64,000 nucleotides of DNA from a virus (IMGVR_UViG_2868569063_000004:58875-122874), one strand, 5' to 3'; shown: positions 18,589 through 34,776, numbered from the stretch's first letter. The notes: a model not told the origin generated them from the letters alone. Numbers and translations are program-made.

Positions 18589-18774
18589 ATGAAAATAATT
18601 TATACAACATTAATAGGACTGGGCTATGTGTCCAAAGAGTCAAATAATAAATATACTGTAGAATTTCTACATGGAAATTATATTTTTGACTTTCCTAAAA
18701 AAATAGTAGAACCATTATTGGTTCATAATACTCTTTATGAAGCGATTTTGCACAGGAAAGGAGAATGGAAATGA
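18589..18774 (+). CDS. Small protein with C-terminal tag (LYEAILHR)
   Basis: AGGAGG RBS; shared C-terminal motif. Confidence 0.75.
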   Translation: MKIIYTTLIGLGYVSKESNNKYTVEFLHGNYIFDFPKKIVEPLLVHNTLYEAILHRKGEWK

Positions 18775-19001
18775 GACATATTTATGTGAAAACACCAGAT
18801 GGTTTAGGTAAATTAAATTTTTATGATGGATCATTATGGCATTCTCACTACATAGTAGACCATTATAAACATGATTCAAAGTTTTACTCTGGATACTATG
18901 AAGGAAGATATATAACTAACGCATCCTGCTATGGCAAAGAACATATCAAGTTTCTCAGGAAGAGACCGCTGATTGATCTGATCACCAAGAGAAAGGAATG
19001 A
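18765..19001 (+). CDS. Small protein with C-terminal tag (LIDLITKR)
   Basis: Paralog of 18998..19243 (IYV...GKL...Y.V...FYSG..GR.I.N...Y.K..IK.L.K.PL). Confidence 0.75.
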   Translation: MEMRHIYVKTPDGLGKLNFYDGSLWHSHYIVDHYKHDSKFYSGYYEGRYITNASCYGKEHIKFLRKRPLIDLITKRKE

Positions 19002-19243
19002 CTATGCAGAACATATATGTATATAATCGTAAAGATAAAATAGGAAAGCTGATATGGTATAGGGGTATAGTCCCTTACCCTTATGTAGTCACTTATAGTC
19101 ATTCCTACAATAGAATATTTTTATATAGTGGCTCAGTTGATGGTAGAGCTGTTATAAACTGTATGGTTTATAGTAAAGATGAAATCAAGCTCTTACATAA
19201 GAAACCGTTGAGACATTTTATAGAAAAGAGGCAAGGCAAATGA
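18998..19243 (+). CDS. Small protein with C-terminal tag (LRHFIEKR)
   Basis: Paralog of the preceding gene. Confidence 0.75.
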   Translation: MTMQNIYVYNRKDKIGKLIWYRGIVPYPYVVTYSHSYNRIFLYSGSVDGRAVINCMVYSKDEIKLLHKKPLRHFIEKRQGK

Positions 19244-19446
19244 TAGTATACAAAATAAATGTCCTGCAAGAGTTGAAGCACAAAGGATATTCAACTTATG
19301 TCTTGCGGAGAGATAGAATCATGGGAGAAGCTCAGATACAAAAGATTCGGCAGGGTGAACTTGCTAGTAAAGAAACTCTCAATACAATCTGTCGATTATT
19401 GCAGATACAGCCCGGAGACTTGCTTGAATATGTGGAGGAGATATAG
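19240..19446 (+). CDS. Cro/C1-type HTH regulator (YozG-like)
   Basis: TLNTICRLLQIQPGDLLEY. Confidence 0.85.
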   Translation: MIVYKINVLQELKHKGYSTYVLRRDRIMGEAQIQKIRQGELASKETLNTICRLLQIQPGDLLEYVEEI

Positions 19447-19680
19447 ATGTTAGGAGAATACATTAAAGACCCATTTTATGGGTTAGGCAAAGTTATAAAA
19501 TTCAGACCTGGCAGTAGTGAACTTGTGTACTTTTTCAAAGCAAATGATAACCTACATGATGGTGCAATAGAGCCAGGTTCCTGTCCAGACAACCATGGTT
19601 GGTGGTTTGGTTCTGACGACATTAAAAGAATGAAGTACCTTCCTCCGCTAGCATCATTAATAGAGAGGAGGCAACAATGA
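19447..19680 (+). CDS. Small SH3-like protein with C-terminal tag (LASLIERR)
   Basis: YGLGKVI...LVYF.K.N..LH.G......WW family. Confidence 0.75.
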   Translation: MLGEYIKDPFYGLGKVIKFRPGSSELVYFFKANDNLHDGAIEPGSCPDNHGWWFGSDDIKRMKYLPPLASLIERRQQ

Positions 19681-19913
19681 AAATAGGTGATATAGTATGG
19701 CGAAGCAATTCTGGTATGGGAAGAATAATAGATATTAGATCTTCCTCAGCGCCATATCTAGTTTATTTTTATAAAGAAAATAACCGTTTGTATAATGGCA
19801 ACGATAGAGGCCCAGATTGTCGCTATTGGTGGTGCTTCAGAAGTTCACTTACTCTTGTCCGTTCTCTGTCTTTGTGCAAGCTAATAGAAAGGAGAAGAAA
19901 TGCAACATCCTAA
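19677..19913 (+). CDS. Small SH3-like protein with C-terminal tag (LCKLIERR)
   Basis: MKIGDIV...GMGRII...YLVYFYKEN..L.NGN...YWW. Confidence 0.75.
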   Translation: MKIGDIVWRSNSGMGRIIDIRSSSAPYLVYFYKENNRLYNGNDRGPDCRYWWCFRSSLTLVRSLSLCKLIERRRNATS

Positions 19914-20148
19914 AGAATTAAATATAGGTGACATAGTTTATCATAAATATTACGGTATAGGACAGATAGAAGATATTGACAAAGATCTTGGAGAACCATT
20001 CCAATATTTAGTCTATTACTATAAAGAAAACATTTCATTACACAATGGAAATGGTGGCTCAGATTACCACTATTAGTGGAGCTATGCTGAAGACCTGAAA
20101 CTTATTTCCTCTGTCCGTACATTAATAGAAAGGAGGCAACATGGTTGA
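19900..20148 (+). pseudogene. Paralog of 19677..19913 with internal TAG (20074-20076); tag VRTLIERR
   Basis: IGDIV...YGIGQI...YLVYYYKEN..LHNGN..DYHY*W; TAG aligns to the paralog TGG. Confidence 0.75.
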
Positions 20149-20461
20149 TTTAAGGAAGAAGCTCCGGTCTGGAATGATAGCTGTCACACCAGCAGGAAGC
20201 TATCTTGTTCTTACCGATTGCGAGACGGCGAATTATGGCAGTCAAGATTTTTGTATTATTGGACCTGATGGTTTTATGATAGGCAGTAATTACGATGAAA
20301 ATTTGAGCACTATTCGTGGCATTTGCTCTATAAAAGCTCTATATAAGTCAACTGTAAATGGACTTACTTATGAAATGAAATACAAAGATAAAGATTTAAT
20401 TTGGACAAAGGATCCAAAAAATCTTAAAGAATTAATCATATCAAGGAGGTTTTCAAAATGA
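20141..20461 (+). CDS. Small protein with C-terminal tag (LKELIISR)
   Basis: AGGAGG RBS; shared motif. Confidence 0.75.
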   Translation: MVDLRKKLRSGMIAVTPAGSYLVLTDCETANYGSQDFCIIGPDGFMIGSNYDENLSTIRGICSIKALYKSTVNGLTYEMKYKDKDLIWTKDPKNLKELIISRRFSK

Positions 20462-20691
20462 AGACAGCAAAGGAAAGACTCTACAGAGTTGATTATGCCG
20501 AGGAAAAACTCGGTGACACAGTAACTAAGGAGATGATGAATACCAGTGAGTATGAAAAAGGCTACGGAATCATTCAAGCCCTTGAATCATGCGAAACAGA
20601 CGGAGAACTTGACATATTAGATGAAGTTCTGACTGCTTTATGTGGTCATGGTATTGAGTATCTCACCAACTTAGTAGAATGTGACTGCTAA
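20458..20691 (+). CDS. Hypothetical acidic protein
   Basis: AGGAGG RBS. Confidence 0.7.
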   Translation: MKTAKERLYRVDYAEEKLGDTVTKEMMNTSEYEKGYGIIQALESCETDGELDILDEVLTALCGHGIEYLTNLVECDC

Positions 20692-20707
20692 ACTATGAAA
20701 TAAAATT

Positions 20708-20735
20708 AGAGCTGTGAAAACAGCTCTTTTTTATT
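20708..20735 (+). terminator. Intrinsic terminator
   Basis: AGAGCTGT-GAAA-ACAGCTCT-TTTTT. Confidence 0.85.
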
Positions 20736-20762
20736 ATATAAAAAAGAAAAGAGGAAAACAAA

Positions 20763-21605
20763 ATGGAAAACATCGTTTACAACACAGTTATGAGCAACTT
20801 ATTAATCTCTGGTACAAAGGCATGTGCAGTAATTCCAAGGGAATTGATGTCTGTCGATCCAGCTTACCAGCGGCTGGAAACACGAAATCATAGAAAAATT
20901 AAAGCAATGCATGACAATTTTGATCATATGATTATGGATGCATTATTAGTGGTGCCACATCCAGAAGAGTGCACTTTTTCTATTGTAGACGGTTATGGTC
21001 GTTTTATTGCATCAGAAGGTATTTTAGATAAACTCGAATGTGTTGTTATTACTTCAGCCCCATCTGATCCAGATGAGAGAAGACATTTCGAAGCAAGTAT
21101 CTTTACAAGACAGAGCTTGTATACTGAAAAAGTTACTCCGCTGCAGATGCATAAGGCAAATCTTATCTTAGGTGAACCGAATGCTGTAGCGTTGCAGGAA
21201 GTGGTTGATGAATATAATTTAAGCATTGCAGAAGACAAAGGGGTAAGAAAACCAGGAACTATTGGTAGTTACACATCCGCTTACAGGATAATTAAAGCAA
21301 AAGGTAAGATAGCTTATGAAAGTATTATATCTACTTGTTGTAAAGCTGGTTATAACTTATCAGGAGATGGATTATGTGACAAGATAATTAGGAACTTATA
21401 TAAAATTTATTGCTTCTACGGAGATATTGGATTAGTAAAAGTATTGCCTATTATGAGAGGAACTGAGCCAAGTACACTTAAAGCAAAAGGAATAGCTGCT
21501 TATCCAGAAAGAGTTGAATTAAGTCTTGCTCTCTACCTGCAGGACTATCTTGTATCTCTTGGTGAACCAAAACAGTTTAACGAGAAAGGAAAGAAAATTT
21601 CTTAA
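20763..21605 (+). CDS. ParB/Srx-superfamily N-terminal domain protein
   Basis: VDPAYQR...FSIVDGYGR...EASIF motifs. Confidence 0.7.
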   Translation: MENIVYNTVMSNLLISGTKACAVIPRELMSVDPAYQRLETRNHRKIKAMHDNFDHMIMDALLVVPHPEECTFSIVDGYGRFIASEGILDKLECVVITSAPSDPDERRHFEASIFTRQSLYTEKVTPLQMHKANLILGEPNAVALQEVVDEYNLSIAEDKGVRKPGTIGSYTSAYRIIKAKGKIAYESIISTCCKAGYNLSGDGLCDKIIRNLYKIYCFYGDIGLVKVLPIMRGTEPSTLKAKGIAAYPERVELSLALYLQDYLVSLGEPKQFNEKGKKIS

Positions 21606-21652
21606 ACAAGTTTGTAAAAAGTATTGACAAGTTTTACAAACTGGTTTATAAT
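21604..21652 (+). promoter_or_regulatory. Consensus sigma-A promoter with two inverted operator boxes
   Basis: AAACAAGTTTGTAAAA(21604-21619), TTGACA(21624), inverted TTTTACAAACTGGTTT(21632-21647), TATAAT(21647). Confidence 0.9.
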
Positions 21653-21681
21653 GCAGTTACAGTTAAGAAAGGAGAAAACAA

Positions 21682-22341
21682 ATGGCAACACTTATTAGTT
21701 TATATAAAGATAACAGAATCACTTCATCAGAGGTAGAATCTAAGGACATTGATATTGTCCTTGGATTCCTCTTCAAAAACTATGTCTTAGGAGAAGACAT
21801 CACAGAGAACTTTGACTCAAAGTTTCTCTACATTGAGGACAGCAAGTTTAAAATGAAACCTCTAAACAAGAAAATAAAAACATTTTCGCAAGAAAAAGAG
21901 GATTCTGTAGAGGTTCTGATTCAGTTTGAGGAGCTCGCTAAGAGCTACGAAGCAGCTTATATCTTTGACCAGTATGAGGTATTCAAGTTTGAAAACGGTG
22001 ACTATAAAGATCTGGATGAGAGAGATTATAAACTCTCCATTTGTAAGCACTGCGGAAAGATTATTTCCGGATCTTTAGTCAATGATTATTGTCCAGAATG
22101 CTTCGTAACCTATGGAGTACAGGAAGTGTTTGAACAGATCCAGTCAGACGACAAAGAGCTGTATACAGAGTACGAGACAGTATCAAAAGTAATGAATACT
22201 GTTGAAGCATTCTACGAAAAAATCAAAGACAAGGGAACTTTAGCTGTACAGAGAGCAAGAGAAATCTCTGAACAGTACTTAGGAAAAGAGCAGATTCCTG
22301 AGGATCTCTATGAAACAATTTTAGGAGGATTTGTAGCATGA
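21682..22341 (+). CDS. Hypothetical protein with zinc finger
   Basis: CKHC...CPEC. Confidence 0.75.
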   Translation: MATLISLYKDNRITSSEVESKDIDIVLGFLFKNYVLGEDITENFDSKFLYIEDSKFKMKPLNKKIKTFSQEKEDSVEVLIQFEELAKSYEAAYIFDQYEVFKFENGDYKDLDERDYKLSICKHCGKIISGSLVNDYCPECFVTYGVQEVFEQIQSDDKELYTEYETVSKVMNTVEAFYEKIKDKGTLAVQRAREISEQYLGKEQIPEDLYETILGGFVA

Positions 22342-23867
22342 ATAAAGAAACAATGAAACAGGGTATGATTAAGGTTCTTAATATGTATGATATCCCTTGG
22401 GGTAATTCAGCCATTGACAAAATTATCAACACATGGGCAGACAACAAAACCCCTTTGATTGAGTTATTAAGACATCATCCTAACTGGAATGATGAAAAAT
22501 GCTATGTAGCATTTGATCAGAATATCAAGGGACAGCCAGACGAGGAGAAAATTTATAATTTCATTAATTGGATGATTATCAAGGGAAGACGCACAGATGC
22601 TTTGTTTGCACTGAGAGATTACAGAGAACAGCTTTTGGACGAACGAACAGCTTCTTTAATTAAAGAATGCTATCCTGATATTAAAGGTATTTCAGCAGGT
22701 CAGAAAACCTCAAGAGCAGTGAAGAAAATCTGTACACTTATAGGTATTACTTCTAATACCTATTCAGATTTTGAAAAGAGGTATGCCAAATATTCAGATG
22801 CAATCAATCCTCTTGACGTTGTTCGGCACACTATCCTGTCAGTTAATCCAGTTGATTATCTATTGTCCTCCAATGGAAACAGCTGGTCTTCTTGCCACAC
22901 ACTTGATAAAAACAATCCTAATGGGTTCTCAGGTTGTCACTGTTCCGGAACTATGAGTTATCTCCTTGATGGAACTACAATGGTTTACTATCAGGTAGAT
23001 AAAGAGTACGACGGAAATGACTTAGAGTTCGAGCCGAAAATCATCCGTCAGTTATTCCATTATAAAGATGGAATCCTTGTACAGGGAAGACTCTACCCTC
23101 AATGTAACGATGGCAAAAACTCACTGTATACTCCAATTAGAGCACAGCTTCAGAAAATCATCGCTGATTGTTTGGTGGCTCCTAACCTTTGGAGAAAGAA
23201 AGGCGGCACCTCTGCTTGTTGCTCAGTTATTAATTCTGAAGGTACCCACTACAGAGATTATGAGTGCCAGAGTGAGTGCTCAGTAAGTAAGATTGTCAAA
23301 ATGATTCCCAAGGGAAGAGTAGATAATAGGCATATGACAGTTGGACATGATATCTACTGTGTAAAATGTGGGGATTGGCATGATATGGAAAGCACTCTTC
23401 TTTGTGAGGATTGTCATGATAACTATGGTGACAGTGGATCTCATAGATGTTGTGATTGCGGTGATCGTTATGACGAAGATGAGATGTATCGTATCAACGG
23501 AGAATGGTATTGTAGTGGTTGTTCCACTTATTGTGATCACTGCGGTAAAAGAGTACCCAATTCGAGTATTCATTATTACGGGGAGTTAGATGAGGACATC
23601 TGTGATGAATGTATCTCTGAAGATTTTTCCACTTGTGACTGTTGTGGAAAGTTAACTAACAATGATGATTTGACTTATATTGAATCTACAGATGAAAATG
23701 TTTGTGGCAGATGCTTAGAGAACAAATATGCATATGTAGATACTGAAGATGAGTATTATCCCATTGAAAAAGTAAATACTTGCGTATGTGGACAAACTTA
23801 CTTAATTGAAGAAGGTGACAAAGGACTTTGTCCAGATTGTGTAGAAAAGGAGACCGGAGATGAGTAA
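22338..23867 (+). CDS. Phage protein with C-terminal CxxC repeat array
   Basis: LSVNPVDYL.SS.GNSWSSCH, GRLYP, then about ten CxxC motifs. Confidence 0.8.
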   Translation: MNKETMKQGMIKVLNMYDIPWGNSAIDKIINTWADNKTPLIELLRHHPNWNDEKCYVAFDQNIKGQPDEEKIYNFINWMIIKGRRTDALFALRDYREQLLDERTASLIKECYPDIKGISAGQKTSRAVKKICTLIGITSNTYSDFEKRYAKYSDAINPLDVVRHTILSVNPVDYLLSSNGNSWSSCHTLDKNNPNGFSGCHCSGTMSYLLDGTTMVYYQVDKEYDGNDLEFEPKIIRQLFHYKDGILVQGRLYPQCNDGKNSLYTPIRAQLQKIIADCLVAPNLWRKKGGTSACCSVINSEGTHYRDYECQSECSVSKIVKMIPKGRVDNRHMTVGHDIYCVKCGDWHDMESTLLCEDCHDNYGDSGSHRCCDCGDRYDEDEMYRINGEWYCSGCSTYCDHCGKRVPNSSIHYYGELDEDICDECISEDFSTCDCCGKLTNNDDLTYIESTDENVCGRCLENKYAYVDTEDEYYPIEKVNTCVCGQTYLIEEGDKGLCPDCVEKETGDE

Positions 23868-24831
23868 AAATAAATATAAAATTACAGAATTAGAAGAGAT
23901 TTTGAGAATGAAACAAATGACTTTAAAGAGTCACCTGGAAGCCAAGTTGGAAGCAGCAGGTTATGAGCCTAAATCAGAAGATGGATTCCTCTATGCTAAG
24001 GGAACTTTCCCAGTACTCTTAGTTGCTCATATGGATACAGTACATGAAGAATGTGTCCAGAAAATCAAATACACTGGAGCAATCATGTCTTCTCCTCAAG
24101 GGATTGGGGGAGATGACCGGTGTGGCATCTACGCTATTCTGCAAATTATTAAAGAGTATCATTGTTCTGTATTGTTTACAGAGGATGAAGAGAAAGGGTG
24201 CGTAGGAGCTGAGAAGTTTGCTGTAAGTGACTATATAGTAAACAATGATATAAATTATATCATTGAAATTGATAGAAGAGGGACCAATGACTGTGTATTC
24301 TACTCTTGTGACAATCCAGATTTTGAAGAGTTCATAGAGTCTACTGGATATTTCAAAACAGCATGGGGTTCTGTGAGTGATATATCAACAATTGCTCCGG
24401 CACTCGGTGTAGCAGCAGTCAATTTATCTTCTGGTTATTTCGACGAACACACTACAAGAGAAACAATCAATGTAGAGGCATTACTTTCTACAATTGAAGA
24501 AGCGAAAAAGATTCTTGCTTTACCATGCGAGGAACCATTTGAGTACATTGAAGCTGCCTATGGTGGTTATGGAAACTGGTGGAGAGATTATGATGAAGAA
24601 GCATCACCTATTAGCACTGATTACACAACAGCTTATACAGATGATTGTACTTATATATTCTCGAAAGAGGAGAAGGCAAAGAAATTCTTCCATATTTATC
24701 TTCAGACTTACAGCGGAAATGAAATCTGTTGTGAAATCCTCGCAATAAATGAAATGGAAGCAATTGGTATGGCTTTAAGTCATTATCAGTATTATTCTGC
24801 TTGTGACATTATTGATATAAAATCACAGTAA
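23860..24831 (+). CDS. M28/M20-clan zinc peptidase
   Basis: AHMDTV, GGDDRCG, DEEKG, IDRRG, EHT. Confidence 0.85.
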   Translation: MSKNKYKITELEEILRMKQMTLKSHLEAKLEAAGYEPKSEDGFLYAKGTFPVLLVAHMDTVHEECVQKIKYTGAIMSSPQGIGGDDRCGIYAILQIIKEYHCSVLFTEDEEKGCVGAEKFAVSDYIVNNDINYIIEIDRRGTNDCVFYSCDNPDFEEFIESTGYFKTAWGSVSDISTIAPALGVAAVNLSSGYFDEHTTRETINVEALLSTIEEAKKILALPCEEPFEYIEAAYGGYGNWWRDYDEEASPISTDYTTAYTDDCTYIFSKEEKAKKFFHIYLQTYSGNEICCEILAINEMEAIGMALSHYQYYSACDIIDIKSQ

Positions 24832-24985: not shown

Positions 24986-25510
24986 ATGATTATGATGAAC
25001 ACAACTATTATTACAAAAATTATGGCAGCACTTGGACAGGACGAGCTTAAAGAACTCATCGGAGCACTTCAGGGAATGGTTGATGCACCAGAGACAGTAC
25101 AGAAACATTGGGAGCCAACAGAAGGTGAGCAGTACTTCTATCTGTGGGGTACAGGAAAGAAAGACGGTGGAGTATTCACAGCAGAGAACCAGAAAGATGT
25201 GATGCGTTTAGCAGTAGGCAACTGCTTCAAGACTGAGGAAGAGAGAGATGCAGCCGCTGAGTATCTGATGATTGTAGCAGAGCTGAAACGCTTCGCCATT
25301 GATCACAACGATGAGATTGACTGGGACGATCACTCTCAGAGAAAATACAAACTCTGCTGGAACAGAGAGACAGAGAAAGTTGATTCCACATGGAGCAGAA
25401 GGAAAATCACAGATGGTATTTACTTCAGCTCTCATGAGGTAGCAATGGCTGCTGTCGAAGCTGTAGGAGAGGATAGAATCAAAAAGTTCTATCTGCCAGA
25501 TGCTGAGTAA
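24986..25510 (+). CDS. Hypothetical phage protein
   Basis: GNCFKTEEE...IDW.D...IYFSS.E.A..A. Confidence 0.8.
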   Translation: MIMMNTTIITKIMAALGQDELKELIGALQGMVDAPETVQKHWEPTEGEQYFYLWGTGKKDGGVFTAENQKDVMRLAVGNCFKTEEERDAAAEYLMIVAELKRFAIDHNDEIDWDDHSQRKYKLCWNRETEKVDSTWSRRKITDGIYFSSHEVAMAAVEAVGEDRIKKFYLPDAE

Positions 25511-25728: not shown

Positions 25729-25977
25729 ATGAAAGTTGGAGATAAAGTAATCGTTAATCCTAGACTGCCTAAATTGTGTGAAGCCATATGGGGGATCTCC
25801 CTGGAGTTAGTTAAAGATAGAATTATGACTATAAAGAGTATAGGTAATGATGATGGCACATCTTATTGCTATGTAGAGGAAGAAACATATATATTTCCTT
25901 GTAGTATATTTATTCCTGTGGAAGATACTCTATTCTTAGCAATTCGCAAAAGGAGACAGTATGGGAAAAGGAGATAA
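25729..25977 (+). CDS. KVGD-type SH3/KOW-like protein with C-terminal tag (LFLAIRKR)
   Basis: MKVGDKVIV; GGAGG RBS. Confidence 0.78.
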   Translation: MKVGDKVIVNPRLPKLCEAIWGISLELVKDRIMTIKSIGNDDGTSYCYVEEETYIFPCSIFIPVEDTLFLAIRKRRQYGKRR

Positions 25978-26206
25978 AGTAATTTTTAGATCTAATACTC
26001 CTCGTATTCTATGGGGCGTAGATATAAATTATTTATTAGGAAATATATGTACCATAAAATCAATTATAGAACTAACTTCTAAAACTTTTGAAAGAAAAGC
26101 TTATGAGTTAGAAGAAGCTAGTAATTATTGGTTTCCAGTAGAGGAATTCATTCCTTACAAAGGACTAATTGCACTAATTGATAAGAGGAGGAAACATGAA
26201 ATATAA
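25961..26206 (+). CDS. KVGD-type protein with C-terminal tag (LIALIDKR)
   Basis: KGDKVIF...WGV; paralog of the previous gene. Confidence 0.78.
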   Translation: MGKGDKVIFRSNTPRILWGVDINYLLGNICTIKSIIELTSKTFERKAYELEEASNYWFPVEEFIPYKGLIALIDKRRKHEI

Positions 26207-26483
26207 AGTTGGGGATAGAGTTATAGTTCGGAAAGATTTAGTTGGCGGATTGGAATATCCTTATTCGAATCCGTTATGCGGAAAGTTATATTTTGCTTCA
26301 GCAATGGAAAAATTTCGTGGGGAAATGTATGAAGTAATAACAGTTTCAGGTGAGTATGATTATGGTTGTGAAACTTATGAATTATCTCTGGGAGAAGAGG
26401 CATTCAGATGGCTGTTCAACGACGCAATGTTGATGTCTGCTAGTGGGTTAAGGAGCTTGATATGCAAGAGAAATATAAAATAG
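26196..26483 (+). CDS. KVGD-type protein with C-terminal tag (LRSLICKR)
   Basis: MKYKVGDRVIVRKDL...M.KF.G...W.F.D.ML. Confidence 0.8.
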   Translation: MKYKVGDRVIVRKDLVGGLEYPYSNPLCGKLYFASAMEKFRGEMYEVITVSGEYDYGCETYELSLGEEAFRWLFNDAMLMSASGLRSLICKRNIK

Positions 26484-26755
26484 GAGACATAGTAAGAGTT
26501 AGAAGTAATTTGAAAGGTAATACAAGATATTATTATGATGGTAGTGATAATGAATATTTGTTTTTTAACATTGCCATGCAAAAATTCTGTGGCCATGCAT
26601 ATAAAATCATAGATAAAGTTTCATCATTTTATCCTGGCTATGTTAACTATAGACTAGCACTAGGAGATGAAACATGCGAGTGGGTTTTCAGTGACATAAT
26701 GTTAGAACCTGTTCAGTGTTTAGGGGGACTTATATGCAAGAGAAAAAAGAATTAA
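26462..26755 (+). CDS. KVGD-type protein with C-terminal tag (LGGLICKR)
   Basis: YKIGDIVRVR...MQKFCG...WVFSDIML. Confidence 0.8.
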   Translation: MQEKYKIGDIVRVRSNLKGNTRYYYDGSDNEYLFFNIAMQKFCGHAYKIIDKVSSFYPGYVNYRLALGDETCEWVFSDIMLEPVQCLGGLICKRKKN

Positions 26756-26967
26756 AAGTTGGAGATTGGGTTCGTGTAAAACGTAACCTAGCAGTTCATG
26801 AGATAGGGGTGAAGTATCTCGGAAAAGTTTATAGAATCAATAGAATAAGTTATACAGGTTACTATCTATCTGGTACTCCAGAAGGATACTGGTACAGATC
26901 ATCACTTATTCCAGTAGGAAATTTAAGTAGACTTGTAGAAATTAGAAAGGAAAATCATGAGATATAA
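26734..26967 (+). CDS. KVGD-type protein with C-terminal tag (LSRLVEIR)
   Basis: ATG 26734 after AGGGGG; LKVGDWVRV. Confidence 0.75.
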   Translation: MQEKKELKVGDWVRVKRNLAVHEIGVKYLGKVYRINRISYTGYYLSGTPEGYWYRSSLIPVGNLSRLVEIRKENHEI

Positions 26968-27232
26968 AGTCGGAGACAGAGTAGTGATTAGAAAAAATTT
27001 AGTTAGCGGGTGGTATTACCATTATGAAAATTCAATGGGAAGATTATTTTTTAACAGCCACATGTCTAAGCTTTGTGGGAAAGTTTGTGTAATAACTAAA
27101 ATTACAGATCCTGAATTGGATGAATATTTTTTGTTAATAGGTAATGAAGAAGTAGAGTGGTATTTTAACAACGCAATGTTAATGCCAATAAAAGGTTTAA
27201 AACGTTTGATATTGTTAAGGGAGGTGATTTGA
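26957..27232 (+). CDS. KVGD-type protein with C-terminal tag (LKRLILLR)
   Basis: YKVGDRVVIRKNL...MSKLCG...WYFNNAML. Confidence 0.8.
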   Translation: MRYKVGDRVVIRKNLVSGWYYHYENSMGRLFFNSHMSKLCGKVCVITKITDPELDEYFLLIGNEEVEWYFNNAMLMPIKGLKRLILLREVI

Positions 27233-27372
27233 TGAAGATATTTACTCTTCAACAAGATATTCATGGGAGATGGTTCGGCTACTGTAAGGAGACAAAAGAA
27301 TATACACCAAGCTTCATCAAATGCAAGAACTTGAAGAAAATGCTTATCTGGAAAGGTTGGGGGTGGAAATGA
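27232..27372 (+). CDS. Small hypothetical protein (46 aa, not in ORF track)
   Basis: GGAGGTG RBS; MKIFTLQQDIHGRWFG...LKKMLIWKGWGWK. Confidence 0.6.
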   Translation: MKIFTLQQDIHGRWFGYCKETKEYTPSFIKCKNLKKMLIWKGWGWK

Positions 27373-27647
27373 TTGAACTTAGAGACTGTATTGTGGGAGT
27401 TAAAGATGAAAAAGAATATGAAAAAGTAATTCAGATTGCGAAAGAACAAGGATGTGAGTGGAATTCTGGAGACTCTTTAGATTATATCTACTGTACATTT
27501 CCAACAAGATTGTTTTTTGATAAAAGAGGAAGGGTCACATTTGGGGGATATCATGAAAAATATTGTGACTATCATTGTAAAAATTTGATGAGTAGATTAC
27601 AAGAATTGATAATTATAAGACAGAAGGGAAAGTTATGGTTGATCTGA
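27369..27647 (+). CDS. FPTRL-family small protein with C-terminal tag (LQELIIIR)
   Basis: M..LR.C.V.V....EY......A..QG..W.SG..L....C.FPTRL. Confidence 0.78.
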   Translation: MIELRDCIVGVKDEKEYEKVIQIAKEQGCEWNSGDSLDYIYCTFPTRLFFDKRGRVTFGGYHEKYCDYHCKNLMSRLQELIIIRQKGKLWLI

Positions 27648-27906
27648 GAGATAGTACAGTATTGGTTAACAATGTAGAAGAATATATAGCTGTGGCTAAA
27701 ATTGCTAAGAAACAAGGCTTTAGATGGGTGAGTGGGGCCCCCCTTTAAATAGAGTCCTTTGTGAGTTTCCAACGAGATTAGAATTTAGTAGGAGATATGA
27801 AACATATTGGGGTTCTAGCCGTGGCAGATGTGCACGAGATTATCCTAAATGCATGGCTCTAGTTGGAGGATTGCGGAGACTCATAATGGTCAGAAAGGAA
27901 ACGTAA
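27635..27906 (+). pseudogene. FPTRL-family paralog frameshifted at a G4C6 tract; tag LRRLIMVR
   Basis: MVDLRDSTVLVNN...QGFRWVSGAP then stop; removing one C at 27738-27743 gives LNRVLCEFPTRL. Confidence 0.78.
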
Positions 27907-28182
27907 ATGATAGATTTGGAATGTTGTACTGTTTTGGTGAATAATAAAGCAGAATATATAGCGTTAATCAAAGAAGCTCAAAAGCAAGGTTTCACATGGG
28001 CATCTGGGTATGATTTAACTAATATATTTTGTGATTTCCCAACAAGATTACGCTTTAATGGAGAGTGTAAAGTATATTATAATTCTTCCGCCTATTATTA
28101 TAATCGTGATTACAAGTGCAAGGAAATAGTTGGTGCATTAAGAAATATGATATTGAAAAGAAAAGAGGGACAACTATGTTAA
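27907..28182 (+). CDS. FPTRL-family small protein with C-terminal tag (LRNMILKR)
   Basis: Third tandem paralog. Confidence 0.78.
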   Translation: MIDLECCTVLVNNKAEYIALIKEAQKQGFTWASGYDLTNIFCDFPTRLRFNGECKVYYNSSAYYYNRDYKCKEIVGALRNMILKRKEGQLC

Positions 28183-28589: not shown

Positions 28590-28590
28590 G

Positions 28591-29061: not shown

Positions 29062-29129
29062 AATAAGAAAATCAATAGTTGTACAGAATGGACCACTAAC
29101 AAATTTATATTAATGGAGAAGAAATCATT

Positions 29130-30206: not shown

Positions 30207-30209
30207 ATT

Positions 30210-30506
30210 ATGGTAAAGATAGGAAAGAAATATAAAGTTCGTTCTTGGGATGATATGGAAAGAGAGTTCGGAACCGCTCAAACTGGGGATGAAACATATA
30301 TACCATGTTTGGCATTTTTTGTTAAAGACATGTGTAGATTTTGTGGAACTACTATAACTGTTTCATATTTTATATACAACAATGTTTTTAGAATCGAAGA
30401 AGATAACGGTAGATATATGTGGTCTACAGACATGATCACACCATTAGGAGATTTATATGAAGCGATACAAAGTAGGAGACATAGTTCAGATTCGTCAATG
30501 GGATGA
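30210..30506 (+). CDS. SH3-like protein with C-terminal tag (LYEAIQSR)
   Basis: KIG.KYKVRSWDDM..EFG...FV.DM..FCG...W..DM family. Confidence 0.78.
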   Translation: MVKIGKKYKVRSWDDMEREFGTAQTGDETYIPCLAFFVKDMCRFCGTTITVSYFIYNNVFRIEEDNGRYMWSTDMITPLGDLYEAIQSRRHSSDSSMG

Positions 30507-30741
30507 TATGGTTAAAGAATTTGGTGTTAATTATTATGGTGTTATTCGATGTAACAATTGCGGTTTTGTAAGAGAAATGAAAAAATATTGTGGCCAAAAG
30601 TTGCGGATACGTGCTATACAGAAATTTGATGATATCTATTATTATTTGAATACTGCAGATACATGGACTTTTACAAGTGAGATGTTTGAAAAAGGAGACT
30701 TATCAATGTTAATCACAAGGAGACAGGAATGTATAAAGTAG
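30457..30741 (+). CDS. SH3-like protein with C-terminal tag (LSMLITRR)
   Basis: YKVGDIVQIRQWDDMVKEFG...FVREMKKYCG. Confidence 0.8.
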   Translation: MKRYKVGDIVQIRQWDDMVKEFGVNYYGVIRCNNCGFVREMKKYCGQKLRIRAIQKFDDIYYYLNTADTWTFTSEMFEKGDLSMLITRRQECIK

Positions 30742-31034
30742 GACAGAAAGTAAGAGTTAAATCTTGGGGGCAGATGGCACAGGAGTACGGAGTTACAGAT
30801 GGAACTATAAACACGCCATCAAGTTTTGTCCCAGATATGCGATGCTTTTGTGGGAAAGAGTACAGAATTAAAGCAATATATGATCCCGTTAATAACATAT
30901 ATGATTTAAAAACTATTACGGGAGACGAAGATGAAAATAGAGAACTGCTTTATTTCTGTTGGGATGAAGTGATGCTTATTCCAATCGCTGGGAAACTAGA
31001 AACTATGATTAAGGAGAGAAGAAAAAATGTATAA
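30729..31034 (+). CDS. SH3-like protein with C-terminal tag (LETMIKER)
   Basis: YKVGQKVRVKSW..M..EYG...FVPDM..FCG. Confidence 0.8.
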   Translation: MYKVGQKVRVKSWGQMAQEYGVTDGTINTPSSFVPDMRCFCGKEYRIKAIYDPVNNIYDLKTITGDEDENRELLYFCWDEVMLIPIAGKLETMIKERRKNV

Positions 31035-32091
31035 ATACTATGATAAGAAAAACAACTTTGTAGAAACATTTAATCCGGAGACAGGATTCTATATCCGGTC
31101 CGATGATCTTACAACAGGAAAAGAACCATTTATGAGAAATTTTCCTGCTTTGTTAGATATTGGTGTTATGGGACATTGCGTCCATGGGGCATCTGGTTTG
31201 TGTATTCAGTCAGGGGTTCAGTGTTATCAGAATGGATTACACACACAGGAGCCTAATATGTCCCTTGAGAATTTCAAGAGAATAGTAGATGAATGTAAAG
31301 GAAAAACATTTCAGTTTGCTCTTGGCGGCAGAGGAGATGTAGACCAGCATGAAAATTTTGAAGAAATCCTTAAGTATTGTTGTTCACAAGGGATTGTGCC
31401 AAACTTTACAAGTTCCGGTTTAGGATTCAATGAAAAAATTGTTTCCTTATGTAAAGAATATTGCGGAGCCGTAGCTATTTCTTGGTATAGAAGTGAATAT
31501 ACACAGAAAGCGATTGATATGTTAGTATCTGCAGGAGTTACTACCAATATTCATTATGTCCTTGGACGGAATTCTATTGATGAAGCTATTGAACATTTGC
31601 AGCAGGAAGATTTTCCTGATGGTATCAATGCAGTAATTTTCTTGTTGCATAAGCCAGTAGGTTTAGGAACTCAGGCAAATGTATTGTCTCCTGATGATGA
31701 AAGAGTCAAAGAATTTTTCTCTTTGATTGATAAACATGATTATAAATTTCAGATTGGATTTGATTCATGTTCTGTGCCTGGACTGTTGAATTTTACAGAA
31801 GAGATTTTAAATTCTACTCTGGAACCGTGTGAAGGAGCAAGATTTTCTGGGTATATTACCTCTGATATGAAGATGCTGCCATGCAGCTTTGACAATCAGG
31901 AACTTAAGTGGGCAGTTGATCTTAATGAACACACTATTCAGGAAGCATGGGATTCAGATGTGTTCGATGATTTCAGAAGCCATTTCAGGAATTCTTGTAG
32001 AGGTTGTAGTCGTCAGTGTGATTGCTTAGGTGGATGCCCGATCAGAAGAGAAATTGTCTTGTGCACAAAAGAGGAGAAAGATTTATGCTAA
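31027..32091 (+). CDS. Radical SAM/SPASM-domain enzyme
   Basis: Cx7Cx6CYQ cluster motif; ALGGRGD; SPASM CEGA...YI...LPCSF...CRGC...CLGGCP. Confidence 0.82.
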   Translation: MYKYYDKKNNFVETFNPETGFYIRSDDLTTGKEPFMRNFPALLDIGVMGHCVHGASGLCIQSGVQCYQNGLHTQEPNMSLENFKRIVDECKGKTFQFALGGRGDVDQHENFEEILKYCCSQGIVPNFTSSGLGFNEKIVSLCKEYCGAVAISWYRSEYTQKAIDMLVSAGVTTNIHYVLGRNSIDEAIEHLQQEDFPDGINAVIFLLHKPVGLGTQANVLSPDDERVKEFFSLIDKHDYKFQIGFDSCSVPGLLNFTEEILNSTLEPCEGARFSGYITSDMKMLPCSFDNQELKWAVDLNEHTIQEAWDSDVFDDFRSHFRNSCRGCSRQCDCLGGCPIRREIVLCTKEEKDLC

Positions 32092-32405
32092 CAATTGGGC
32101 TAAGTGCTGTATTAATAGTGACATTGATAATTTTATTCGCTTGCATAAGCAAAAATATAAATTTGAAAATGGAAGTAGAAGAACTAAAAATAAAGAACGA
32201 GACCCAACGCTTGAGTTATTCTAGCGTATACCGAGATTATGTAAAGTTACTAATGAAACCTGATGCATTAAAGCCTACTACATCAGACATAAAAGAAGCT
32301 GTTCACTATGCAATGATTAAAGCTCATCCTGACAATGGAGGTAAACAAGAAGATTTTGTAAAGTTTAGAAAGCTATATGAGAGGATGAATAATGAATACA
32401 GATAA
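32085..32405 (+). CDS. Membrane-anchored J-domain-like protein
   Basis: N-terminal TM; DIKEA.....KAHPDNGG..EDF....K.YE. Confidence 0.75.
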   Translation: MLTIGLSAVLIVTLIILFACISKNINLKMEVEELKIKNETQRLSYSSVYRDYVKLLMKPDALKPTTSDIKEAVHYAMIKAHPDNGGKQEDFVKFRKLYERMNNEYR

Positions 32406-32682
32406 ACTTAAATTTCTTAAACTTGGCGGGCAATATAAAGTAAAATCATTTGCTCGTTTAATGGAAGAATATGGTTCTGATAACTCTAGTGGAATGCCGA
32501 ATGTCATCTGCGGTTTTAATAAGCAAATGAAAAAATTGTGTGATCAAAAAATTACGATACAAGATACATTCTATAAGCATGAAGATAAGTTTTATCAAAT
32601 AAAAGAAGCAAGATATTGTTGGAATAGTCAGATGTTAGAACTTCCTTTAAGTACATTGATCTATAGGAGGAAACATGGATAG
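32392..32682 (+). CDS. SH3-like protein with C-terminal tag (LSTLIYRR)
   Basis: KLG.QYKVKSF..L..EYG...MKKLC...W...ML. Confidence 0.78.
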   Translation: MNTDKLKFLKLGGQYKVKSFARLMEEYGSDNSSGMPNVICGFNKQMKKLCDQKITIQDTFYKHEDKFYQIKEARYCWNSQMLELPLSTLIYRRKHG

Positions 32683-32920
32683 AAATGAAATATATTTCAA
32701 GTTAAGTGGATTTTGCTCCGATCATTTTTGCTTTAATTGTCCAATATTTTTCATAAATCCCAAGTATAAATGTGGTAATGGTTGTGGATACAGTTTATGT
32801 GGAAATCCGGTGCCGCTATCAGAAGCATTGAAGTATTATTCTATCATATTTGAAAAACAGAATCTGAGAGCACTTATAGTAAGAAGAAGGGGGTATTATA
32901 AATATGAAAGAAGGATATAA
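32675..32920 (+). CDS. Cys-rich small protein with C-terminal tag (LRALIVRR)
   Basis: FC...CFNCP...C...C; body unrelated to other tagged genes. Confidence 0.72.
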   Translation: MDRNEIYFKLSGFCSDHFCFNCPIFFINPKYKCGNGCGYSLCGNPVPLSEALKYYSIIFEKQNLRALIVRRRGYYKYERRI

Positions 32921-33350
32921 ATTAGAAGACACTATTATCCTCAATGGAAAAGTAGGGTGGGTAAACACAGGAGATGATGCTGATAGCATTATTAGAATAC
33001 AAAATATTCAGAAAGTAAAAAGATTTTCTGGTGAAGAAATTATTGTATCTAATAATGGATTTGCTTTTTCAAAAGAAATGGAAAGTCGATGCGGGTGGCT
33101 TGACAGATATGCAAGTATTCAAATGCTTACAGGAGATACACCTATTGATATGGATCACATTGATGAGACAAAGATTGTATCAATGGAAGGAATCACTGAG
33201 TCTGAATATTATCATCGGTATAGTGATTATACTGGATATCTTTGGACTGAAGAAGAATTCAAATGTGGCGGTCATGATCTGTTAAAAATCTTAGAAGGGA
33301 ACATGGGAAAATATATTCATATGGAAATTGAATTATATTCGAGGTGTTGA
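32904..33350 (+). CDS. Hypothetical protein
   Basis: YSDYTGYLWT...GGHDL. Confidence 0.75.
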   Translation: MKEGYKLEDTIILNGKVGWVNTGDDADSIIRIQNIQKVKRFSGEEIIVSNNGFAFSKEMESRCGWLDRYASIQMLTGDTPIDMDHIDETKIVSMEGITESEYYHRYSDYTGYLWTEEEFKCGGHDLLKILEGNMGKYIHMEIELYSRC

Positions 33351-33351
33351 T

Positions 33352-33747
33352 ATGACATTTGAAGAAGCTAAACAGCGTTCGGATTACTGTTTTAGACTCA
33401 ACGGAATCCAACTTCTAATAAGGAATATAAGAGAAGAGCATTTAGAAATTGATCTCGATAATGGTCCTCTTATAGGTAAAGCTGTATTGGAAATAGGTTA
33501 TGTTGATATTGAAGTAAATATTTCTGTTCTCGGAATGTTTAACGAAATACCAACATATAAACCGACTATTGAATATTTTACTTGTTTAAAAACGGAGAAT
33601 GATTGGGAGCCTATTGAATATATTGGGACTGGAGCAGATGTGGATTGGTGGAGTAACAGATGGAAAGAAGAGTTGGAAGAAGATATGTTTTTAGCATTAA
33701 ATGAATATGTGGAAAGTGCAGGACTCAGCTATGATGAACCAAATTGA
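33352..33747 (+). CDS. Hypothetical acidic protein
   Basis: ATG after GAGGTG. Confidence 0.7.
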   Translation: MTFEEAKQRSDYCFRLNGIQLLIRNIREEHLEIDLDNGPLIGKAVLEIGYVDIEVNISVLGMFNEIPTYKPTIEYFTCLKTENDWEPIEYIGTGADVDWWSNRWKEELEEDMFLALNEYVESAGLSYDEPN

Positions 33748-33761
33748 AGGAGGAAAGAAGA

Positions 33762-34553
33762 ATGGATAAAGCTTGGTTAGAACAGAAAATAAAAGAATGT
33801 GAAAGTGCCCGGCCTGAGATTGAAAAAATACTTAGGAACAAGCTGCATTTGGATGATAAGGAATTTGAGAAAATCATGGATTGTCTCGAATCTCCTTGTT
33901 ATACTACTGCAATACAAGAATTAAACATGGTACTTATTATGAAATATGTGGATGATTCTACAAAAACTTATGAAGAATATAAAGAATTATCAGAACTTAC
34001 AGGAATTGAAGAGCTGTTTTATAAATACACCAAGAAAAATTGGATTGATGCATATTTAGATGGAGAGCCAATGGAATTTGATGGAGATATTATTATCACA
34101 GATCCTTGTTATATCATGAAAGAAGATGATGATTGGGCAACATGTGCCTACGGAGAGGATATGGAAGCACTTGGAATAACTCACTATATGACAAGAGATA
34201 CTCTCTATGGAGATTGGAGTTGTACTACTTTTGATACTGATACAAAAGAAGCTATTGGTGAGTTTTGTGCAGATGCTGGTTTAGTGTCAGTATTTTTATT
34301 AGATGAAGTCCTGAAATATAATCCATATTATAAAGATCATTTAAAAAATAAATGGACGGTTACTTGGATTAAAGATTTCAAAGGAACTGTAGAATTTGTC
34401 GTTAAGCACATTGAGGGCTACTATGAAGAAGATACCGACTACTGGAAAAAAGGTGACTACTGGGAAGATTATGTTTTAGAAGTAGTAGGACATGGCATTA
34501 ACAAAGTTACTGGTAAACCAATTAACTTTGTTGGAAAGCAAACAGGTTTATAA
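33762..34553 (+). CDS. Hypothetical protein
   Basis: ITDPCY...T.YGD...ADAGLV motifs. Confidence 0.78.
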   Translation: MDKAWLEQKIKECESARPEIEKILRNKLHLDDKEFEKIMDCLESPCYTTAIQELNMVLIMKYVDDSTKTYEEYKELSELTGIEELFYKYTKKNWIDAYLDGEPMEFDGDIIITDPCYIMKEDDDWATCAYGEDMEALGITHYMTRDTLYGDWSCTTFDTDTKEAIGEFCADAGLVSVFLLDEVLKYNPYYKDHLKNKWTVTWIKDFKGTVEFVVKHIEGYYEEDTDYWKKGDYWEDYVLEVVGHGINKVTGKPINFVGKQTGL

Positions 34554-34554
34554 T

Positions 34555-34776
34555 ATGATTCCGAACAAAAAAGGATTACAAGTTATTATGAAAGGCACTT
34601 TTACTCCAGGATGGGAAAATAGAATTTTTACATTAACTGGAGAAAAACAAATAAATGATTGGGTAAATGTCTACTATCCAGTAATGGAGAATGTTAATCC
34701 TGTCAATAGATGTTTTATGGTGCCGCTAAATTCGTTAAAATTATTAATTTTAAATAAACAAGAAAAGGAGAACTAA
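34555..34776 (+). CDS. Small protein with variant tag (LKLLILNK)
   Basis: ATG 34555; KKG.QV SH3-like start. Confidence 0.6.
   Translation: MIPNKKGLQVIMKGTFTPGWENRIFTLTGEKQINDWVNVYYPVMENVNPVNRCFMVPLNSLKLLILNKQEKEN

Follow-up and report, generated by a model that had tools for sequence, protein, structure and literature searches.

A short C-terminal helix on unrelated small proteins of a large Clostridia prophage is a candidate docking motif

About 20 fast-evolving small early proteins, drawn from at least three unrelated families, end in one short helix, Leu-x-x-Leu-Ile-x-x-Arg. The record analysed is a 122.9-kb provirus, a large gut Clostridia prophage; coordinates refer to the window, a stretch of 64,000 nucleotides. 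We favor the reading that the tag is a portable docking helix on a library of binders, and we put the probability of this reading at roughly 0.5.

Results

The motif L-x-x-[LIVMAF]-I-x-x-R occurs 22 times in the provirus record, and 20 of these occurrences lie within 20 residues of a C-terminus. Among the 39 plus-strand genes at 18.5-34.8 kb, 19 have the strict motif within 20 residues of the protein's end, compared with 1 of 132 genes elsewhere in the genome (Fisher p = 1.6e-13). Internal occurrences amount to 2 per 35,571 residues, a rate at which about 0.03 C-terminal matches would be expected for 39 genes, against the 19 observed. When approximately 500 kb of related phage DNA lacking the tag was scanned, only scattered matches were found, mostly on the opposite strand to the matched gene.

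These counts confirm the common C-terminal tag that a sequence-only reading of this DNA had described through 22 octapeptides. Every one of the 22 was located where it had been placed, and in all carriers the tag lies 2-10 residues ahead of the stop (Table 1). The strict pattern fits 19 of them, with VRTLIERR, LSRLVEIR and LKLLILNK as variants, and one additional variant, absent from the earlier list, was found in a 47-aa ORF. A search of PDB sequences with the tag profile gave nothing meaningful, which leaves no known motif as a guide.

The first tagged operon is bounded by a sigma-70-type promoter and a terminator, and the tagged genes share promoter-driven operons with HTH and antirepressor genes. 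The tagged proteins are probably expressed early. Two carriers are broken in the present genome, g06 by an in-frame TAG and g15 by a frameshift; the counterpart of g15 in the relative L078 is an 89-aa called gene with one open frame.

Table 1. Tagged genes and flanking operon elements, in window coordinates
Feature	Position	Strand	Length (aa)	Tag	Body or remark
Sigma-70-type promoter	18543..18571	+			TTGACA-17-TGnTATGAT, 11/12; ahead of first tagged operon
g01	18589..18774	+	61	LYEAILHR	GLG-type body
g02	18765..19001	+	78	LIDLITKR	Family A
g03	18998..19243	+	81	LRHFIEKR	Family A
g04	19447..19680	+	77	LASLIERR	Family B
g05	19677..19913	+	78	LCKLIERR	Family B
g06	19900..20148	+		VRTLIERR	Family B; in-frame TAG at 20074-20076 is Trp in relative G001
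g07	20141..20461	+	106	LKELIISR	Singleton body
Terminator-like hairpin	20708..20727	+			End of first tagged operon
g08	25729..25977	+	82	LFLAIRKR	SH3_15-like KVGD family
g09	25961..26206	+	81	LIALIDKR	KVGD family
g10	26196..26483	+	95	LRSLICKR	KVGD family; tag contains next start codon (26462)
g11	26462..26755	+	97	LGGLICKR	KVGD family; tag contains next start (26734)
g12	26734..26967	+	77	LSRLVEIR (variant)	KVGD family
g13	26957..27232	+	91	LKRLILLR	KVGD family; model: barrel 1-77, tag helix 80-90
ORF	27229..27372	+	47	LKKMLIWK (variant)	Kept in relatives
g14	27369..27647	+	92	LQELIIIR	FPTRL family
g15	27635..27906	+		LRRLIMVR	FPTRL family; frameshifted here, single open frame in relatives
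g16	27907..28182	+	91	LRNMILKR	FPTRL family
g17	30210..30506	+	98	LYEAIQSR	KVGD family; next gene's start (30457) upstream of whole tag
g18	30457..30741	+	94	LSMLITRR	KVGD family (weak Pfam SH3_15)
g19	30729..31034	+	101	LETMIKER	KVGD family
g20	32392..32682	+	96	LSTLIYRR	KVGD family
g21	32675..32920	+	81	LRALIVRR	Cys-rich singleton
g22	34492..34776	+	94	LKLLILNK (variant)	Singleton

At the L1, L4 and I5 codons, the information resides in positions 1 and 2, with third positions near zero. L1 is encoded by five different Leu codons, and the tag Leu and Ile codons are used at the frequencies of the gene bodies. Selection on L1, L4 and I5 is therefore at the protein level, as had been claimed for the whole motif. 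The claim does not carry over in full to R8, whose codon is always AGR. AGG makes up 48% (10/21) of these codons compared with 6% in the bodies, an eight-fold enrichment, and a purine-rich run follows. R8 is confounded: its codon is also the first of the downstream gene's Shine-Dalgarno sequence, and the protein accounts for only part of the conservation of R8. The sequence-only reading had noted that the Arg often coincides with the next Shine-Dalgarno but stays where that sequence lies elsewhere. The motif does persist at three junctions where the next start lies upstream of R8, but the AGG bias means that the two signals are not cleanly separable.

A nucleotide-level signal would account for such a bias if the tag belonged to the initiation region of the next coupled gene, or were a recombination linker between cassettes, with the peptide as a by-product. 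The AGR codons, the purine-rich run and the tight coupling of all carriers to a downstream gene fit this explanation. The uninformative third positions and background codon usage at L1, L4 and I5 do not, and the next start lies anywhere from -17 to +25 nt from R8, a 42-nt spread, with the whole tag of g17 downstream of the next start. The control for translational coupling that the sequence-only reading had called for comes out on its side: the motif is missing from more than 100 further genes of the genome that are tightly packed and coupled. Direct repeats at gene junctions are only short and rare. For L-x-x-L-I the nucleotide-level reading is largely refuted, and overall it is scarcely probable. 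Cassette-boundary DNA repeats of the PeSL type were also considered; PeSL-like elements are nucleotide-level repeats at small ORFs in the hyperplastic regions of T4-type phages. This candidate was rejected given the uninformative third codon positions and the shortness and scarcity of direct repeats where genes meet.

L033 and L034 are divergent members of the clade. Identity in these two is 33-63% for tagged orthologues, compared with 79-90% for untagged neighbors. Within the tag cells of these two genomes, the anchors are identical in 28 of 32 cases and the x positions in 8 of 32. About 70 distinct octamers across the clade retain the pattern, and the tag is present in 117 of 120 GLGK-family proteins and in every full-length FPTRL protein. 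These alignments indicate purifying selection on the anchors amid fast-diverging bodies, and the tag is restricted to one phage clade.

The possibility that the tagged proteins are RiPP-like precursors of the neighboring radical-SAM/SPASM enzyme was examined in 31 loci whose SPASM protein is 51-69% identical, none of which had tagged genes within 10 kb. In the four of these loci that were read gene by gene, the genes after the enzyme have FVTNSSSSS as their N-terminal leader. Without co-occurrence of tag and maturase across the 31 loci, this candidate was rejected.

The carriers comprise an SH3_15-like superfamily of ten members, a plausible second group of six, a third group of three, and four singletons. 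The description of several unrelated families thus holds, although not as 22 independent bodies. When the KVGD, FPTRL and GLGK family profiles were compared with hhalign, the aligned region consisted of 12-13 tag columns only. The bodies share nothing else detectable, and the tag is portable, as had been proposed. For the KVGD domain there are 6466 homologues, most of them SH3_15 proteins with several repeats, in which the match stops at about position 77. In SH3_15 homologues elsewhere the motif is absent apart from 4 chance matches in 44.8 k residues, which places the tag outside the SH3_15 fold.

Against the Pfam profile SH3_15 (Mind bomb SH3 repeat), g18 scores only E = 0.007 and 17 bits, under the 24-bit cut-off, and the homologue P0066, found with the KVGD family profile, matches it at 2.7e-73 with 8 repeats. 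The g13 model has a confident barrel (residues 1-77, pLDDT about 90), after which the tag is predicted as a low-confidence terminal helix (residues 80-90, pLDDT 67 dropping to 49). Residues 1-78 of this model superpose on the solved Mib repeats 4tse, 4xi6 and 4xi7 (rmsd 2.4-3.2 over 68-74 residues) with a Z of 7.7-7.8, which, being below 8, is only moderate; the match to YorP has a Z of 6.2. Nearly all structural matches stop at model residue 78-88, before the full helix. With moderate confidence, the modeled KVGD body would be an SH3-like barrel superposable on Mib repeats. The FPTRL model was unusable (pLDDT 45).

The sequence-only reading had noted that the last helix could simply be structural if all bodies were one fold. 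The tag would then be the remnant of one ancestor, or a product of convergence on a small fold needing a terminal capping helix, and its retention would be ordinary fold conservation. Two groups, each perhaps of SH3-like barrels, do account for sixteen of the 22-23 carriers, the linker is short, and a capping residue stands at the helix start. However, no body similarity among the three families was found by profile comparison, thousands of SH3_15 relatives end without the helix, and the helix has low confidence beside a confident barrel. The FPTRL, Cys-rich and 106-aa bodies also look different, judged by sequence only. We regard a structural remnant as quite unlikely.

Another possible explanation is self-assembly, with the tag as the ligand of the phage's own SH3_15-like barrels, so that the mini-proteins chain or cluster and the non-SH3 families are cargo. 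Half of the carriers have SH3_15-like bodies, solved Mib repeats are known to bind short peptides (title of PDB entry 4xi7), and co-evolution of reader and ligand within the clade would explain the clade restriction. Yet SH3_15 domains elsewhere occur without such a ligand, and from a conserved reader pocket one would expect the reverse of fast bodies with a fixed tag. We consider self-assembly very unlikely.

On a helix, L1, L4, I5 and R8 fall at 0, 300, 40 and 340 degrees, on one face. C-terminal amphipathic helices target MinD and FtsA to the membrane, and the tag could likewise hold its carriers at the inner membrane face, through hydrophobic insertion and basic residues on anionic lipids. 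The tag fits in being a short amphipathic helix at the C-terminus with Lys/Arg behind it, and in several copies x6 and x7 are hydrophobic as well (LILLR, LIIIR, LIMVR). Lipid binding, though, needs amphipathicity rather than a near-invariant Leu1 and Ile5. The hydrophobic face has Arg8 at its center, and x6 is Glu or Asp in many copies (LIERR, LIDKR, LIEVR). Eight residues are short for a membrane anchor, and much of the basic tail is explained by the Shine-Dalgarno sequence. We consider membrane targeting quite unlikely.

The helix could instead be a built-in degron or timer that gives the early mini-proteins a short life, ending, for example, at the early-late switch or as the phage enters lysogeny. 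Its reader would be an AAA+ protease of the host (ClpXP, ClpCP, Lon or FtsH), or a protease that works with the phage's own ClpP-like subunit. Instability is classical for potentially toxic early proteins of temperate phages, as established for lambda CII, N, O and Xis, and the element is a provirus that encodes a ClpP-family peptidase at 1650-2267; the tag itself is hydrophobic and basic and near the C-terminus. In contrast, R8 is followed by a variable polar or basic tail of 2-10 residues with no free non-polar end, the strict helical periodicity (1, 4, 5, 8) is atypical of extended degrons, and ClpP-like genes are present in tag-less relatives and absent from others, with no co-variation with the tag. 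A degron is, in our judgment, unlikely.

Discussion

In the docking reading that we favor, the tag would be a short linear docking motif on small, rapidly evolving proteins of unrelated folds. A 3-6-residue linker would join the body to a capping residue (G/P/S/N/D/T), the two-turn amphipathic helix L1-x-x-[L/M/A]4-I5-x-x-R8 and a short basic unstructured tail. We infer that one conserved receptor would offer a hydrophobic groove, acidic at its rim, into which the face formed by L1, L4, I5 and R8 inserts. The variable binder-type bodies, ten of them SH3_15/Mind-bomb-repeat-like barrels, would thereby be tethered to one machine. Fixed anchors on quickly diverging carriers point to a conserved host component as the likelier receptor, rather than to a phage protein. 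The bodies may form an effector library, as had been suggested, and their rapid divergence is in keeping with that idea.

Some observations sit less easily with docking. The AGG bias at R8 shows that the downstream Shine-Dalgarno sequence shapes part of the motif. The linker to the SH3-like barrel is short, and the helix could pack on its own body. Approximately twenty proteins vying for one site would also be unusual unless the receptor is abundant.

A wider proposal, which we rate as unlikely and offer tentatively, is a "common-handle" system in which large Clostridia prophages present about 20 fast-evolving binder mini-domains (SH3_15-like and others) through one C-terminal helix to one host or phage machine, such as an unfoldase/protease, the divisome or the ribosome. 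A single receptor would in this way be steered towards, or obstructed by, many different targets. This would be an undescribed system and a prokaryotic-virus analogue of viral substrate-adaptor families.

Several known systems resemble the present tag in part. ssrA-like degrons are common terminal peptides on unrelated proteins, read by one machine. These best-known C-terminal degrons need a free terminus with non-polar final residues, whereas the present motif is helical in its periodicity and internal to a variable tail; an ssrA-like degron was rejected on the polar or basic residues that follow R8.

T4 internal proteins carry a capsid targeting sequence (PMC3012670, PMC9026906), which, like the present tag, is one short portable peptide on several unrelated phage proteins with one destination. 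That sequence is N-terminal and removed by the prohead protease, and its carriers are in the virion, whereas the present carriers are in early-type operons with no link to head genes. A T4-type signal was rejected since the tag is near the C-terminus in all carriers. Encapsulin cargo-loading peptides are closer in position, being short and C-terminal and docking in a pocket of the HK97-fold shell protein (PMC7355545). Here too a short C-terminal peptide is found on diverse proteins. Encapsulin cargo genes adjoin the shell gene, in contrast to the present carriers, and the cargo-loading consensus is Gly/Ser/Leu-rich and extended. Pfam Phage_capsid was not detected in the provirus record, which is 76% complete. 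Capsid loading, one destination suggested in the sequence-only reading, thus finds no support in operons shared with HTH and antirepressor genes and without an adjacent shell gene. What stands of that interpretation is protein-level conservation of L1, L4 and I5, portability, a tag outside the SH3_15 fold, a predicted terminal helix and the outcome of the coupling control, while the Arg signal is partly a Shine-Dalgarno by-product.

The SspB adaptor has a C-terminal ClpX-binding motif that docks on the ClpX N-domain (PMC9963277). SspB is one adaptor rather than a library of about 20. Its XB peptide, LRVVK, is at the very end of the chain, whereas the present helix is followed by a variable tail. 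Both share a folded binding body, a linker and a short hydrophobic and basic C-terminal peptide, whose sole job in SspB is to tether the body and its cargo to one machine. In layout, the present tag is nearer to the tethering peptide of an adaptor than to a signal that is cleaved off.

A C-terminal motif marks the small genes of one island

The tag is a C-terminal octapeptide, L1-x-x-[L/M/A]4-I5-x-x-R8, in which L1, L4, I5 and R8 are the anchors and x the other positions. A six-frame scan of the window with the strict pattern L..[LIVMA]I..R gave 19 matches on the + strand between 18.7 and 32.9 kb, every one of them 2-10 residues ahead of a stop in an ORF of at least 50 codons. The remainder of the window and of the genome held only a handful of matches, in short or antisense frames. 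Enrichment was calculated from a crude gene call, with the motif scored in the last 20 residues. The strict motif was found in 19 of the 39 + strand genes in the island region (21 including variants), compared to 1 of 132 genes elsewhere in the genome and 1 of 45 when only small genes were counted (Fisher p = 1.6e-13). Inside proteins it occurred twice in 35,571 residues, a rate at which about 0.03 C-terminal matches are expected for 39 genes. Carriers are 47-108 aa long and make up 21 of the 26 small genes of the island. The set of tagged small proteins proposed in the sequence-only reading is therefore real, although its list of tags had missed one variant, LKKMLIWK, which is kept in relatives.

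Two of the tagged genes (numbered g01-g22) are broken in this genome. g06 is a nonsense mutant whose tag remains encoded downstream of the TAG, and g15 is frameshifted. Frameshifts into the same alternative frame recur in many metagenomic versions of its neighbor g16 (P0059-P0065), suggesting that loss is frequent or the tract slippery. A look-alike that is not a carrier, a 61-aa ribbon-helix-helix-like protein ending in …GLIRALIKEKLEESQ, fits the loose pattern only; its counterpart in L078, a relative's locus, is annotated RepB-RCR_reg.

The first tagged cluster forms an operon of its own, bounded by a promoter and a hairpin (see table). Early, host-polymerase-driven expression of the tagged genes is predicted and fits this arrangement. 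As the sequence-only reading had noted for the HTH gene, interspersed genes lack the tag; they include the HTH protein, an M28/PepT-like peptidase, a P22-antirepressor-like protein and a J-domain-like membrane protein. The last is small, has an N-terminal transmembrane helix and, by eye, shows a C-terminal J-domain-like HPD signature (…IKAHPDNGG…F…YE…). It had no Pfam match at E <= 0.001 and may be a membrane-anchored DnaK recruiter. A 509-aa protein is matched by phrog_18912 over its N-terminal part only; its C-terminal third is very acidic, and the roughly ten C-x-x-C pairs in it point to about five zinc ribbons.

Features of the window, by position
Feature	Position (strand)	Remarks
ClpP-family peptidase gene	1650-2267 (-)	Pfam E = 1e-27
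PhoH-like ATPase gene	2295-3293 (-)	adjoins ClpP-family gene
Ribbon-helix-helix-like protein	17232-17417	look-alike
Sigma-70-type promoter	18543-18571	11/12, extended -10; opens first tagged cluster
g06, family B carrier	19900-20148	in-frame TAG 20074-20076; Trp (…HYWWSY…) in G001, a complete relative
Terminator-like hairpin	20708-20727	closes first tagged cluster
Perfect consensus promoter	21624-21652	ahead of next block
509-aa protein	22338-23867	
174-aa protein	24986-25510	just upstream of largest tagged array
47-aa ORF	27229-27372	variant LKKMLIWK
g15, FPTRL family	27635-27906	frameshifted; single open frame in relatives, 89-aa gene in L078
g16	27907-28182	
SPASM-like gene	31027-32091	
J-domain-like membrane protein	32082-32405	untagged
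Leader-type gene	35475-35747	
Leader-type gene	35729-36202	
Further stretch	36754-37512	noted together with SPASM-like and leader genes
Two tyrosine-recombinase-type genes	41689-44853	mid + strand block; Phage_integrase; MrpR N-terminal core-binding domain
NAD-dependent DNA ligase	45206-47251	after recombinase-type genes
Four tRNA genes	50104-52155	Gln-TTG, Met-CAT, Cys-ACA, Leu-TAG

The motif is conserved as protein

The 22 paralogous tags were aligned as DNA and information was scored per codon position. Information was concentrated at codon positions 1 and 2 of L1, L4, I5 and R8, with almost none at third positions. Five different Leu codons (TTA, CTA, TTG, CTT, CTG) were used at L1, and in the tag Leu and Ile codons occur as often as they do in the bodies of the carriers (ATA, for example, 57% vs 56%). 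Since third positions are nearly empty and codon use matches that of the bodies, L-x-x-L-I is selected as amino acids, which bears out the protein-level conservation first claimed from sequence. R8 differs. Its codon was AGR in 21 of 21 Arg cases, the share of AGG was 48% vs 6% in bodies, and a purine run follows, so R8 is in most cases the codon that opens the Shine-Dalgarno sequence of the following gene.

The earlier claim that the Arg often coincides with the Shine-Dalgarno sequence but persists where that lies elsewhere held in part. At three junctions (g10/g11, g11/g12 and g17/g18) the next start lies upstream of R8, with the entire tag of g17 downstream of it, and the motif is kept there and in orthologues; elsewhere R8 usually does double duty. 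An RNA-level signal would account for the R8 codons, but with the information of the remaining anchors lying in amino acids, it is the least probable explanation we considered. The notion that any translationally coupled genes would carry the motif equally often fails, because the R8-to-start distance varies from -17 to +25 nt, over 100 further closely spaced genes of this genome lack the motif, and the few DNA repeats at junctions are short.

The tag is an appendage on unrelated bodies

BLASTP among carriers gave four sequence groups (g02 and g03; g04, g05 and broken g06; ten members, g08-g13 and g17-g20; g14, g16 and broken g15) and four singletons (g01, g07, g21 and g22). Judged by sequence, g01-g06 plausibly form a single family, GLGK. 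When the KVGD, FPTRL and GLGK families were compared profile to profile, alignment was confined to 12-13 tag columns in all three pairs, in agreement with the differing bodies first described. Searches of carriers and neighbors against Pfam, PHROGs and NCBIfam returned only phrog_7488, the M28/PepT-like peptidase, the P22 antirepressor N-domain and SPASM, and the ESM Atlas gave only unnamed viral clusters for the FPTRL and 106-aa bodies. An untagged 191-aa protein in a relative (L078:19335-19910) has the same N-terminus as the FPTRL family (M-I-N-L-K-x-x-C-I-L-V).

The KVGD body matches the first ~70 of 144 profile positions of phrog_7488, a family of unknown function, and weakly matches SH3_15. 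A KVGD profile search found 6466 relatives. Most are long proteins of 2-8 repeats; one has an ADP-ribosyltransferase domain followed by eight SH3_15 repeats. Alignment to multi-repeat relatives stops at about profile position 77. Among the relatives, the motif occurred 4 times in 44.8 k residues, and the tag was present only on single-domain proteins of 92-103 aa; those traced to contigs showed the synteny of this clade. The AlphaFold model of g13 has a barrel at residues 1-77 (pLDDT ~90) and a helix at 80-90, where confidence drops to 67 and 49. Its structural matches include a Mind bomb repeat (Z 7.7-7.8) and SPbeta YorP (Z 6.2), and nearly all stop at model residue 78-88, before the helix ends. 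Because homologue and structure matches end before the helix, the tag is an appendage outside the SH3-like fold.

A structural cap is improbable for a segment outside the fold and shared by families that align nowhere else. Self-assembly through SH3-like barrels, which would draw on the KVGD bodies, is likewise improbable. The AlphaFold model for FPTRL was unusable (pLDDT 45), so the putatively different folds of families other than KVGD are a sequence-based assignment.

Bodies diverge faster than the tag across one phage clade

In close relatives (marker 95-99% identical) the tag is retained while x positions vary, as in the sets LETMIKER / LAQIIQRR / IRKLIERR and LKRLILLR / LRYLVMTR / LEHLIIAR. 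In two divergent syntenic contigs (L033 and L034), tagged orthologues are 33-63% identical to those of the window, compared to 79-90% for untagged neighbors (peptidase 79%, 51-aa protein 84%, 174-aa protein 90%, SPASM 90%). The pattern fits 8 of 8 tags there, with 28 of 32 anchor cells identical and 8 of 32 x cells. About 70 distinct octamers occur across the clade, and the tag is present in 117 of 120 GLGK-family clusters and in all full-length FPTRL clusters. Because bodies diverge more than their neighbors while anchors persist, the carriers are fast-evolving accessory genes bearing a slowly evolving label. The 174-aa protein, which has no family match, is the most conserved island gene (90% identity in a contig with tagged genes at 44-63%).

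The record is a single 122,874-bp IMG/VR entry, classed as provirus, with an estimated completeness of 76%; the window is its final 64 kb. Related elements reach 162.6 kb at 100% completeness (G001), and one relative, the one behind L078, is embedded in a 618-kb metagenomic contig and is therefore integrated. GC content is ~33-36%. Among named genomes, the nearest that have relatives of a marker gene belong to Clostridia, chiefly Lachnospiraceae. At the DNA level, the phage GenBank collection held a single, unrelated match of 455 nt; as its source was human feces, relatives probably come from human gut samples. The tag is restricted to a single phage clade. G001 has 18 carriers in one ~15-kb block and none elsewhere, and the SPASM module is the sole thing that tag-less relatives have in common with the island. 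Recombinase-type, ligase and tRNA genes follow further along the window.

The SPASM enzyme belongs with an N-terminal leader family

The island's radical-SAM/SPASM gene, with non-canonical Cys spacing near its N-terminus, was considered as a partner of the tag and rejected. In 31 loci of other phages and prophages the SPASM protein is 51-69% identical, nothing else is in common with the island, and no tagged gene lies within 10 kb of it. In the four of these distant-phage loci that were gone through gene by gene (L021, L027, L029 and L032), the SPASM-like gene is directly followed by two to five FVTNSSSSS-leader genes, which start M-K-I-R-x-D-F-V-T-N-S-S-S-S-S. Because these, not tagged genes, directly follow the enzyme there, its partner is the N-terminal leader family, which points to an enzyme and leader module distinct from the C-terminal tag. 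In this clade, ~3.4 kb of other genes, some tagged, separate enzyme and leader genes.

Candidate readers of the tag

On a helical wheel, L1, L4, I5 and R8 fall on one face. Nearly all copies have a helix-capping residue before L1, and the tail beyond R8 is polar or basic and variable in length. The near-invariant Leu1 and Ile5 point to a defined pocket instead of generic amphipathicity, and a tail this variable speaks against a reader of the free C-terminus. For these two reasons we favor docking, with a probability of about 0.5: as a docking helix, the tag would hold variable, binder-type bodies on a single conserved receptor. A membrane helix could present such a face too, but is unlikely where a defined pocket is indicated. 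A degron, one of the destinations first suggested, is doubtful; a ClpP-family gene is encoded in the window and in some tag-less relatives, is missing from others, and does not co-vary with the tag.

Known peptides with some resemblance to the tag were considered as leads: the ParB N-terminal peptide (GL-x-AL[IL]), the FtsZ C-terminal peptide (I-P-x-F-L-R), the MinE contact helix, the ComS/ComK MecA motif and DnaK-binding cores. Every one of them fails at a conserved residue; the mismatches are the lack of Pro at x2, the lack of a basic residue before L1 and an acidic x6. A ParA/MinD-type ATPase (PF13614) was not found in the provirus record, and the tag profile had one chance match only (E = 2.4) among PDB sequences. 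Of the sequence-only reading, in which a portable helix addresses an effector library to one destination, the protein-level tag on fast-evolving bodies of unrelated families stands; the search identified no destination.

The shared protein-level tag is real and statistically overwhelming, on a fast-evolving gene library with predicted early expression. Small early phage genes are mostly orphans that offer no experimental handle. With a strictly conserved eight-residue helix common to ~20 proteins, the tag peptide is a single reagent with which to fish for the receptor, and finding it would tie one gene in ten of an abundant gut prophage lineage to a common pathway. Should a host machine be the receptor, the tag would be a new recruiting short linear motif in Clostridia, and the variable bodies a natural binder library leading to host targets, possibly defense proteins.

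Comparison with known systems

Full-text literature searches, covering C-terminal motifs conserved among early proteins of phages as well as YorP, SPbeta and SH3, turned up no description of the motif or of such a library. The logic of one portable peptide, many carriers and one reader is shared with the T4 capsid targeting sequence (PMC3012670), encapsulin cargo-loading peptides (PMC7355545) and SspB-type tethering peptides (PMC9963277). C-terminal degrons follow it as well. Each of the four differs from the tag in a defining feature, whether chain position, the need for a free terminus or gene neighborhood.
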